DNA from: a virus | Lineage: Duplodnaviria > Heunggongvirae > Uroviricota > Caudoviricetes | IMG/VR virus record: IMGVR_UViG_2563366840_000001 | Reading direction: 5' to 3' (one strand) | Length of the DNA stretch: 64,000 nucleotides | Shown: piece after piece, positions 49,771 to 52,621 of the stretch | Numbering within the stretch: position 1 is the stretch's first letter | Layout: every line of letters begins with the position of its first letter | Notes under the pieces: generated by a model | What the model was told of the DNA's origin: nothing | Databases searched by the model: none | What the model saw: only the letters and a program-made list of their open reading frames with translations | Position numbers and translations under genes: made by a program

Positions 49771-50463
49771 TCATGCTGCACCATCACCTTTCACTTTCAT
49801 CAATGTCAGGTTTCCGCAAAATACGGCACCAGTATCGATATAATGCTGATTCCAGAATGTCTTCGGGCTTTTCACCAGAGTGTGACCAAAGATAAAACGA
49901 TCTGCGCCCGAAATTTCGCCACCAATATCATCCATCGAATCACTGATACGCTCGCGCGCCCAGACAACGTTGAAAAGCGGCACCTCCTTACCGAATTGAT
50001 ATTCATTATCCGGATAGTCGGCATGGGCTATAACGATAGTTTCTTGCCCGGTGTTCAACTCAATGATATAGGGCAGTCGTCTTACCAACTCCACCAGCGC
50101 CCTGGCTAATATTTCCTGATCAGCGTCCAGCATGAAGAACCATTGACCGCCATTCATTAGCCAGTTATTCACGTTGCCATCAGGACTTAACGCATCAATC
50201 ATCAGCCGCTCATGGTTGCCCATAACCGCTCTGAACCATGGCATCTGCAATAGCTCCAGGCATTTAACATTTTCGGTGCCGCGATCGATAAGGTCGCCGA
50301 CCGATATCAGTAAATCCTGCGCAGGGTCAAAATCCACACGATGGAGTTCGGACATCAGTCTGGTGTAGCAACCATGCAGATCACCAACAACCCAGATATT
50401 CCTGTATTTGGTACCGTCGATACGGTGATAAATTGTGGGTGCCATCATGTATTCTTCAGCCAT
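49771..50463 (-). CDS. Ser/Thr protein phosphatase, calcineurin-like metallophosphatase
   Basis: Motifs GDLHG, GDLIDRG, GNHE. Confidence 0.85.
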
Positions 50464-51071
50464 TCTTTAAGAGTCATCTGCGGAATACCTCCCATTTTCC
50501 CGCATGAAACAACGTCAATCTGTTCACGCGCAGACTGGAATAACAAAGGCAGGTGACTTAGATTTTTTGGCGTGCCGCCGGAGTGAACGCGTGGTTCTTG
50601 CGTAGCGTCAACGCCCACCAGGGCTACATGTTTGAATCCGATATGGAAAGCCAGGTTCAGAGCACCATATGCACTATTGCCACTGGCAATTTCATTCTCA
50701 TCTTCACAAAGGCCGAAATGTGCGGACCAGCGCCACGCCCACCACTCGGGAGAATTCGTATTTTTTGGCTCGATGCCGCGTTCAGCCACACGACGGAAGC
50801 ACAGAACGCCGTCTCTGACTTCACGTTCTTTAACATCGGGTAGTGCCATGCAATAACAAACACCACGGCGACGGCGGCCACGACCAACGCGCCGCATATT
50901 GTCTGGGGATGGATCAAGGGTGAAAAAATAAGAAGCGCGGTTAAGCCAGTCGATAGCCCCATTGACCGCTATAATCGGCACTCCGCGCGGCGCAACAAAG
51001 TTTGCGGCGCTTGGGCCACTGCCGACGATAATAACGCGATCACTGCCTCTAAATTTATTCTTGGGAAACAT
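50445..51071 (-). CDS. MptE-like (DUF115) protein, paralog 2
   Basis: N-terminal VIIVGSGPS...IIAVNGA Rossmann-like motif; overlaps the upstream paralog by about 100 bp. Confidence 0.6.
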
Positions 51072-51631
51072 TGAATTGCACTGCTCCTACTTGCATTCAA
51101 AATATGTAAATCTGCGTGTTTTTTGCGGGTATCCAAGAACTGCTGTTGCCATTTTGAAATAGACACCTGCGTTGGATTCCGTAGGGCTTGAGGGTGCGCA
51201 CCATGCCAATGAAGGCCGTTTTGCAGAGAACAGTCATAGCCGACTAATACCACTACTTCAGCCCCTGATTCAGCAGCCAGACTGATAGCCTGCGCGCCGC
51301 TATTTACCCCTTCCGCCGGTCCACAATATCGCCTGTACTCCAACGAAAATGATTTCGCCGCCGCCAGGTTGGCTGTCACTTTGCGGAATCTCCCTCCCGG
51401 TATGGTGGAGCCGTATTGCTTCCACCATGACAAATCACCGGCGTATAAGGCATAAATGTCATCGAACATCTGCCAGGAATTGTTAACCGCGATGATTGAA
51501 CAGCCAGTTTTTTCTATAGCAGCACAGTCCTCACGAGTGAGTGACGGACCGCTACCGACACAAAAAACAGTCCTAGTCGCCCTGGGTGGTATGTTCATTC
51601 TCAGCTGCAAATTCAGCCTCCAGGCGAGCAT
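50969..51631 (-). CDS. MptE-like (DUF115) protein, paralog 1
   Basis: N-terminal VFCVGSGPS...IIAVNNS motif. Confidence 0.6.
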   Translation of the reverse strand: MLAWRLNLQLRMNIPPRATRTVFCVGSGPSLTREDCAAIEKTGCSIIAVNNSWQMFDDIYALYAGDLSWWKQYGSTIPGGRFRKVTANLAAAKSFSLEYRRYCGPAEGVNSGAQAISLAAESGAEVVVLVGYDCSLQNGLHWHGAHPQALRNPTQVSISKWQQQFLDTRKKHADLHILNASRSSAIQCFPRINLEAVIALLSSAVAQAPQTLLRRAECRL

Positions 51632-51794
51632 TCATTTCAGCGATTACAGGGTCCACTACAGCATCTGTTTCCTGTTCATTACGCGGCATGATCGATGCCA
51701 GCGATTCATAATTAGCCTTGGATGACACGATTATTCTCCCGATGTTAATGTGCGCTATATCAAATGGCGCATATGCGCTAATTAATTTATTATT

Positions 51795-52373
51795 TTAAGC
51801 AGCATACAACCACTTGTCGCCGTTCAATACATGCTCAATAGCCTCACCCTTTTTAAGGCTCATGTATTCCAGGATGGCGGTTATCGCTTGTTCTGCACCA
51901 TACGCAAGAACGACGTAGTAACCTTCCTCTCTAAGCCTGCGCATCCAGGCGATCTGCTCTTGCGTCGGGGCTTTACCATTTGGTTCTTTAAGCTCAATTC
52001 GCATGCCGTGATAAATACCGCATGCTTTATCGAGACTCATGTCCGGATAACCTTTTTTCTGCCCTTCAGCCTTCATTTTCCCGGCGGTTGCTTTTGAACG
52101 TTTCCCTCCGTTAGGCGTTGCATGCAACAGCTCATAGATGTCAGGGTGCTTGCGTTCGAAGTAATCAAAAATGAAAACCTGCTCGAAGTGCTCGCAATTT
52201 CCGTCGCGCAGGTCTGGGTTCTTTGCCAGTGCTGCAAGTGCCTTCGCATGTGGAGAAACTTCTTTTACCGGCGCAAGCGATAAGAATGGATCCTTTTTGG
52301 TTTTTGGCCTGGACCGCCCCTTATTTCGACGCTCACTAAAAGCCTGAAACTCTTCCTCAGTAAAGCGCAACAT
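51795..52373 (-). CDS. VRR-NUC domain nuclease
   Basis: GYPDMSLD...IELK PD-(D/E)xK arrangement typical of VRR-NUC. Confidence 0.65.
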   Translation of the reverse strand: MLRFTEEEFQAFSERRNKGRSRPKTKKDPFLSLAPVKEVSPHAKALAALAKNPDLRDGNCEHFEQVFIFDYFERKHPDIYELLHATPNGGKRSKATAGKMKAEGQKKGYPDMSLDKACGIYHGMRIELKEPNGKAPTQEQIAWMRRLREEGYYVVLAYGAEQAITAILEYMSLKKGEAIEHVLNGDKWLYAA

Positions 52374-52375
52374 AA

Positions 52376-52621
52376 TCAGTCAAATCCTGCCGGTCGCATG
52401 CCATATTTACGCTGTTTTGCGGCCTGCTCTTCCCTGTGCCATTGCGCACATTCAGCGTCACAATAAATGCCTGATTCAATCGATTCATTGCAGTAACGAC
52501 ACTTCCCTGTAAATACCTGGCTCACGACCTGTGCCTGCTTTCTGATGTTATCGATGGCCATGTCTTTGAGAGCTTCTAACTGATTCATGCTCAGCTCTGC
52601 ATCATCAACACGTTCTGCCAA
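52376..52621 (-). CDS. TraR/DksA-family C4 zinc-finger protein
   Basis: 81 aa with CRYC...CDAEC zinc finger. Confidence 0.65.
   Translation of the reverse strand: MAERVDDAELSMNQLEALKDMAIDNIRKQAQVVSQVFTGKCRYCNESIESGIYCDAECAQWHREEQAAKQRKYGMRPAGFD

Follow-up and report, generated by a model that had tools for sequence, protein, structure and literature searches.

Fold, conservation and possible glycosylation role of PmgO, PmgP and PmgQ in a phage P1-like element

Two overlapping reading frames that share a motif raise the question of whether they are one gene broken by a frameshift or two genes, and of what their products might do. The frames lie in a 64,000-nucleotide (nt) stretch of DNA from a tailed phage (Caudoviricetes; IMG/VR record IMGVR_UViG_2563366840_000001), referred to here as the window. 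Positions 49382-52621 of the window align at 98% identity with positions 78602-81840 of phage P1 (NC_005856), and likewise with P7, RCS47, SJ46 and further P1-like phage-plasmids. The minus-strand open reading frames (ORFs) of the window match the annotated P1 genes pmgL, pmgM, pmgN, pmgO, pmgP, ppp and pmgQ one to one, and the overlapping frames are pmgO and pmgP. We consider the chances about evenly balanced that PmgO, PmgP and PmgQ make up a non-essential lytic-cycle module that builds a small glycan, most probably on a virion (head) protein.

These genes are already known and annotated. P1 is a standard laboratory phage, in which pmgO, pmgP and pmgQ have so far been described just as having a "putative morphogenetic function". 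Our literature searches turned up no work on the function of pmgO, pmgP or pmgQ, nor on that of the DUF115 family in phages. We also found no description there of the fold beyond database labels, of the conserved triad, or of the two settings in which it occurs, the head modules of phages and islands of adhesin genes. The features at the center of this analysis are as follows.

50969..51631, minus strand: pmgO, Maf/GT42/MptE-fold enzyme of 220 amino acids (aa) as annotated, with the conserved domain at about aa 20-200
50969..51071, minus strand: pmgO/pmgP overlap, 103 nt, with pmgP in the -1 frame relative to pmgO
50445..51071, minus strand: pmgP, second Maf/GT42/MptE-fold enzyme, 208 aa, a remote PmgO paralog
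49385..49774, minus strand: 5' part of pmgQ, about aa 1-128 including the DxD motif, GT8-like glycosyltransferase
47760..48074, minus strand: 3' part of pmgQ, region of the H-G-x-P motif, placed by the P1 alignment and the invariant columns of the PmgQ family alignment

Overlap, paralogy and fold

A preliminary description of the window had reported two adjacent ORFs with a common VxxVGSGPS...IAVN motif and an overlap of about 100 bp, and had suggested that the overlap might be a frameshift error. Both ORFs and the motif were found. Each protein has V-x-x-V-G-S-G-P-S near its N terminus followed by I-I-A-V-N (TVFCVGSGPS...SIIAVN in PmgO, ...PIIAVN in PmgP). The 103-nt overlap is annotated identically in P1 and P7, and the same overlap with 220- and 208-aa ORFs is present in all 80 of 80 independent IMG/VR P1-like contigs. 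The two genes overlap in diverged relatives too: in a lambda-like prophage of Citrobacter rodentium by 94 nt, in Pantoea by 49 nt and in Chimaeribacter by 40 nt. Because the contigs, the P1 and P7 annotations and the diverged relatives all agree, the overlap is a real, old and stable gene arrangement, and we rejected a sequencing or assembly artefact as its cause.

In the enteric versions, the pmgP ATG lies inside the Cys codon of the conserved C-F-P-R motif of PmgO. In the window, an AGGAG stands 12 nt upstream of this ATG. The last ~20 aa of P1 PmgO, which are read across the pmgP start, form an unconserved, low-confidence tail. With pmgP starting in the last conserved codons of pmgO, translation of the two genes is probably coupled. 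Going by homologues, pmgO perhaps starts farther downstream than the annotated start, which overlaps pmgN (51573-51631).

Could the overlap instead hide a programmed -1 ribosomal frameshift that yields a PmgO-PmgP fusion or, in a weaker version, a sequencing or assembly frameshift in one gene? The -1 frame of pmgP, an in-phase A_AAT_TTA heptamer within the P1-type overlap and a natural in-frame PmgO+PmgP fusion in another phage would all suit this idea, which we nevertheless find hardly credible. In the natural fusion, a complete PmgO domain has simply lost the stop codon that followed it; pmgP comes with an ATG and an upstream AGGAG of its own; and the 80 assemblies are concordant. Other relatives, in Zhongshania, Commensalibacter, Brevundimonas and Pseudomonas, overlap by just 7-13 nt. 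We give programmed frameshifting little weight because the heptamer is missing from the C. rodentium and Chimaeribacter overlaps and because the pmgO-like and pmgP-like genes of Pseudescherichia lie 4 kb apart on opposite strands.

When PmgO and PmgP are compared by pairwise BLASTP, only the N-terminal motif aligns (14/36 identical, E 0.003). In contrast, their family profiles align end to end over 162 columns (hhalign probability 98%, E 1.5e-13, 23% identity). Judged by these profiles, the paralogy is real but remote: the two proteins are copies, long since diverged, of one single-domain enzyme of ~190 aa.

Both proteins fall below the 34.6-bit gathering threshold of Pfam family PF01973 (MptE-like/DUF115/Maf_flag10), PmgO at 23.4 bits and PmgP at 20.9 bits. 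Some homologues carry precomputed PF01973 matches, and a PmgO+PmgP fusion protein (P0051) scores 44.6 bits. The fold of the solved PF01973 members, the Maf central domain and MptE, is matched by PmgO and PmgP, and the best fold match is a Maf glycosyltransferase. These data indicate that PmgO and PmgP have the fold common to Maf flagellin glycosyltransferases, GT42 sialyltransferases and MptE. "MptE-like" is a correct fold label with little functional information. NCBIfam gave no match for PmgO, PmgP or PmgQ. Profile searches of Protein Data Bank (PDB) sequences returned only a sub-significant match to Cst-II for PmgO and none for PmgP or the fusion, and a viral fold library matched uncharacterised DUF115-like proteins only. 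PADLOC had no match for any of the seven proteins of the locus, and a role in anti-phage defence was rejected on this result.

The motifs of the GT42 enzymes Cst-I and Cst-II of Campylobacter jejuni, G-x-G-P-S and S-G...G-x-D, are also those of PmgO and PmgP. The PmgO profile matches Cst-II at a non-significant E of ~0.2, and the alignment falls exactly at the GxGPS and SG...GxD motifs. GSGPS occurs in both proteins, and NSG...GYD in PmgO and GNS...GVD in PmgP align to the Cst-II motifs. Invariant His residues after the G-x-D strand (H141 and H143 in PmgO, H173 in PmgP) are candidate counterparts of Cst-II His188. Three characterised branches of this superfamily (Maf, GT42 and GT73) transfer ulosonic acids activated by cytidine monophosphate (CMP). 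Escherichia coli K-12, a host of P1, is not known to make CMP-sialic acid, so the RefSeq name of PmgO, "alpha-2,3-sialyltransferase", is very unlikely to match its actual reaction.

Identity between PmgO/PmgP and the Maf enzymes of Magnetospirillum (PDB 5mu5) and Clostridium botulinum is 16-17%. Maf proteins are ~600 aa long, their central DUF115 domain being flanked by an N-terminal and a C-terminal domain, and the transfer of CMP-ulosonic acids by branches of the superfamily also rests on work with them (PMC11339370). Unlike these three-domain enzymes, PmgO and PmgP are bare single domains. Their loci also differ in lacking a flagellar or pseudaminic/legionaminic acid (Pse/Leg) biosynthesis context: flagellin and nonulosonic-acid biosynthesis genes were found neither in the annotated loci nor among the 25 most frequent neighbour families.

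PmgQ is a predicted GT8-type retaining glycosyltransferase. D79-L80-D81 and P213 are invariant in its family, and H208 and G209 nearly so. Among solved GT8 enzymes, the PmgQ profile matches the Skp1 alpha-galactosyltransferase (6mw5) at E 2.1e-8, glycogenin at 2e-5 and GlyE (5gvv) at 4e-5. These enzymes extend protein-linked glycans and have the DxD and C-terminal H-G-x-P motifs in common with PmgQ. PmgQ differs from them in being ~230 aa without extra domains and in being related also to GT8 enzymes of lipopolysaccharide (LPS) synthesis such as WaaJ. In the window, an insertion sequence (IS) cuts pmgQ after about codon 128. Because pmgQ is split, the module is crippled in this particular phage. 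An intact 233-aa pmgQ is found in 71 of the 80 P1-like contigs; in the other nine, the best-hit ORF has another length or was undetected.

The module and its genomic settings

Which genes belong together? We scanned one genome per species and public assemblies for PmgO-, PmgP- and PmgQ-like genes. A scan of IMG/VR returned near-identical P1-like loci only and hence gave no information on diversity. The full triad, with a gene order that varies, is present in Enterobacterales, Pseudomonas, Zhongshania, Brevundimonas and one Bacteroidota genome. Subsets of the triad occur in Ochrobactrum, Methylophilaceae, Microbulbifer, one Longimicrobiales genome and several Alphaproteobacteria. The PmgO family comprises 7,682 cluster representatives (50% identity clusters, E<=1e-3). 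Homologues are also present in cultured phages, among them D3-like Pseudomonas phages, Citrobacter phiNP, and jumbo Klebsiella, Caulobacter, Brevundimonas and Xanthomonas phages, and all named bacterial hosts of homologues are Gram-negative. PmgO-PmgP-PmgQ is a portable module of three enzymes that is widespread in phages of many Gram-negative phyla.

P0051 (locus L111, 10001-11131) joins a complete PmgO and a complete PmgP domain in frame in 376 aa; it is encoded on a contig of a phage with a P22-type portal, directly after the lysis genes and ahead of two more putative glycosyltransferase genes. PmgO+PmgO tandems exist, and one protein fuses PmgO to a TylF O-methyltransferase. Further enzymes often lie within the module: class-I S-adenosylmethionine (SAM) methyltransferases and a methyltransferase of the FkbM type, a hexapeptide acyltransferase and an additional Nucleotid_trans glycosyltransferase. 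Such a gene make-up is that of a locus for assembling and decorating glycans and does not fit a pathway for pterin, thiamin or nucleotides.

The preliminary description had grouped the two paralogs with a co-oriented metallophosphatase, a VRR-NUC nuclease, a TraR-like zinc finger and an IS-disrupted gene in one nucleotide or glycan modification pathway. All of these neighbours were found, as Ppp, PmgM, PmgL and the split pmgQ. The single pathway did not hold up. Ppp lies between pmgP and pmgQ in P1-like elements only, and no other annotated triad locus contains PmgM or PmgL. Synteny thus rules out a single pathway with Ppp, PmgM and PmgL, and by the same measure pmgL and pmgM are best placed as operon neighbours outside the conserved module. 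The idea of a glycan pathway is retained for PmgO, PmgP and PmgQ, and we saw no sign of a modification of nucleotides or DNA.

The module recurs in head-gene blocks. In HK97-like phages, including D3 and PAJU2, module genes lie between the major capsid gene or a gp6-like connector gene and a head-closure gene. Ten diverse loci gave 115 neighbour ORFs, and the families met most often among these are those of the portal, the HK97 capsid, the terminase, the prohead protease and head-completion proteins. At other loci, the module follows a lysis cassette and precedes the terminase. Since many phages have the module within a head-morphogenesis block, the likely substrate is the virion. The view that the cluster is unrelated to virion structure, also part of the preliminary description, is therefore right in that the ORFs encode enzymes rather than structural proteins, and probably wrong about the virion as a target. 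In P1, a C1 operator and a late promoter are annotated upstream of the module, and both regions are conserved in the window. If these sites act as annotated, the module would be off in the lysogen and on in lytic growth.

Several features of the D3 and PAJU2 loci deserve mention. In D3 (locus L116, orf6.5/orf7 region, 5441-6055), the PmgO homologue is orf7, which comes straight after the major head gene. Its annotation is too short, since upstream the same frame encodes the conserved CLASGPSLT motif and overlaps orf6.5. PAJU2 ORF010 (locus L117, 3974-4543) is a full-length PmgO homologue deposited as a "structural protein". If virion proteomics is behind that label, the enzyme may accompany the particles. 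A class-I SAM methyltransferase (D3 orf13/PAJU2 ORF012) and an unassigned 275-aa protein (orf12/ORF011) are encoded at 7394-8789 of L116 and 4525-5917 of L117. This pair directly follows the PmgO homologue in PAJU2 and lies a few genes downstream of it in D3, and it may belong to the same modification module.

The triad also occurs outside prophages. In Pseudescherichia, Serratia plymuthica and one metagenomic contig, it is interleaved with Big_1 and inverse-autotransporter (IAT_beta) adhesin genes (loci L003, L089-L093, L108 and L112). L003 and L112 have holin and lysozyme genes as well, and the Serratia locus has lipase and lipoxygenase genes. In one protein (P0310), a PmgO domain is fused to Big_1/Big_13 domains. 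The adhesin context hints at protein substrates, and the loci could be islands for adhesin glycosylation or for holin-dependent secretion.

Candidate functions

How might a glycan be built on a virion protein? Each of the enzymes PmgO and PmgP would contribute a CMP-activated ulosonic acid, and PmgQ would supply an alpha-linked hexose, with a uridine diphosphate (UDP)-sugar as its donor. The acceptor would be phage-made, most probably a head protein. The candidate donor is CMP-3-deoxy-D-manno-octulosonate (CMP-Kdo), the only CMP-ulosonic acid expected in every host. Glycosyltransferase activity, acceptor and donor are given here as we infer them; that the module is non-essential comes from the literature, where P1 deletions found pmgO, pmgP and pmgQ dispensable for plaque formation and anti-restriction.

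Both halves of this proposal have precedents. In E. coli, Maf enzymes transfer Kdo from CMP-Kdo onto Ser/Thr (PMC11339370). Virion glycosylation has been reported in mycobacteriophages: phage glycosyltransferases of Che8 and Rita are reported to put glycans on the major capsid proteins (Freeman et al. 2023, as cited in PMC11256854). These phages differ in having actinobacterial hosts.

A number of observations weigh against virion glycosylation by the module. In P1 itself, the module adjoins baseplate/tail genes and pmgR/pmgS, not head genes. There is no CMP-sugar synthetase among the 25 most frequent neighbour families, which leaves the donor unconstrained. The deletions have no plating or anti-restriction phenotype. 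The main texts of P1 virion proteomics and capsid cryo-electron microscopy papers mention no glycan or glycosylation, and we found no biochemical datum for any member of either family. Direct profile comparison of PmgO/PmgP with WaaZ is weak (hhalign probability 12%, E ~2e-3, L-G...G-x-D region only). PmgQ also aligns with the LPS enzyme WaaJ (E 4e-4), including the DxD and H..G..KPW motifs, and a WaaZ-like enzyme with a GT8 enzyme is also the make-up of the LPS-core enzymes.

Envelope remodelling is an alternative. PmgO and PmgP would be WaaZ-like and PmgQ would resemble the GT8 core enzymes WaaJ and WaaO, and together they would change the core of the infected cell's LPS, which would block superinfection or keep progeny from sticking to debris. 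The LPS core is the P1 receptor. WaaZ, a 283-aa protein encoded in the waa operon and recorded in E. coli K-12 as "lipopolysaccharide core biosynthesis protein WaaZ", is an enzyme that we take to be a GT73 KdoIII transferase with CMP-Kdo as donor. It has the same Pfam MptE-like signature as PmgO and PmgP, at a similar sub-threshold level (PF01973, E 6.9e-7), and one PmgO+PmgP fusion has a faint precomputed WaaZ_KDO_III match. Besides the WaaJ alignment, it also counts for this alternative that the module often adjoins lysis cassettes and, in bacteria, surface-adhesin genes, and that every host seen is Gram-negative. We nonetheless judge it unlikely. The 12% probability of the direct comparison with WaaZ counts here as well. 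The sites annotated in P1 imply repression in the lysogen and lytic expression, which is the wrong timing for surface conversion. Moreover, most of the diverse phages carry the module between capsid and head-completion genes, not at typical sites of conversion genes, and the best solved relatives of PmgQ extend protein-linked glycans.

A pyrophosphokinase function, of the kind that the name MptE suggests, is much less probable still. PmgO and PmgP would then resemble MptE, the archaeal 6-hydroxymethyl-7,8-dihydropterin pyrophosphokinase (PDB 8sd5), or thiamin pyrophosphokinase, and would move a pyrophosphate group from ATP onto a small molecule or a hydroxymethylated base in a cofactor, nucleotide or DNA-modification pathway, possibly with Ppp and Pap. 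The Pfam family name and the two phosphatases close by in P1 fit such a role. However, the phosphatases are absent elsewhere, where the constant partners are glycosyltransferases, sugar-type methyltransferases and an acetyltransferase, with no nucleotide or folate enzymes. The PmgO/PmgP loci have no pterin, folate or methanopterin context, and with glycosyltransferases and sugar-modifying enzymes as partners the function of MptE is not transferable. The module also lies in late structural operons rather than in replication modules, and the best fold match is a Maf glycosyltransferase. P1 DNA is not known to contain hypermodified bases.

The preferred reading, a glycan on a virion protein, can be extended to a broader proposal that we regard as doubtful. 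A dedicated system for virion O-glycosylation would be present in P1, in D3-like Pseudomonas phages and in many further phages with Gram-negative hosts; in it, two minimal Maf-like enzymes and a GT8 enzyme would place a Kdo-type glycan, derived from a CMP-ulosonic acid, on head proteins, and the triad would have been co-opted in Enterobacterales chromosomes for the glycosylation of Big_1 adhesins. If true, no earlier virion glycosylation system would be known from phages that infect Gram-negative bacteria, and protein-linked Kdo would have a natural example. Glycosylated virions would matter for how the immune system recognises and clears therapeutic phages, for the stability of virions and for the evasion of host defences, and the enzymes would offer compact ~200-aa tools for protein glyco-engineering in E. 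coli. If LPS is the target, a receptor-editing function in lytic growth would be likewise unusual.

Neighbouring genes and other features of the window

The remaining features around the module are listed below.

52376..52621, minus strand: pmgL, DksA/TraR-type zinc-finger protein, 81 aa (PHROG_54, E 1.6e-12; P1 annotation)
51795..52373, minus strand: pmgM, VRR-NUC-like nuclease, 192 aa (Pfam VRR_NUC 20.9 bits, cutoff 23.8; PHROG Holliday-junction resolvase, E 9.7e-27)
51772..51788, plus strand: predicted position of Oppp (former Op83), a C1 repressor operator in the pmgM-pmgN spacer, transferred from the P1 annotation through the 98% alignment and read in the sequence
51573..51728, minus strand: pmgN, 51 aa (PHROG_2350), with a 59-nt overlap with the annotated pmgO start
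49771..50463, minus strand: ppp, homologue of the lambda-type Ser/Thr protein phosphatase, 230 aa (Pfam Metallophos 58.9 bits, E 1.2e-15)
48075..49384, minus strand: IS3-family element, 1310 bp (orfA 49004-49330, orfB 48117-49007)

Published work found pmgN to be essential by CRISPR interference (CRISPRi), not by deletion (PMC10695390). Ppp has a calcineurin-like metallophosphoesterase domain, well above the Pfam cutoff of 21.5 bits, and is close to the PrpA/PrpB type; it matches PRK11439 in NCBIfam at 275 bits (E 5.5e-82), under the equivalog cutoff. The IS3-family element ends in inverted repeats of 25 nt and shows a target duplication of 3 bp (GAA), and copies at >=99% identity occur in many E. 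coli and Shigella plasmids. Elsewhere in the window, 45105-45331 has no P1 alignment; here, ~225 bp stand in place of the ~345 bp that surround the pmgT 3' end in P1. A block at 22000-28000 has a low G+C content, 0.37-0.41 compared with ~0.48-0.52 over most of the remaining window.

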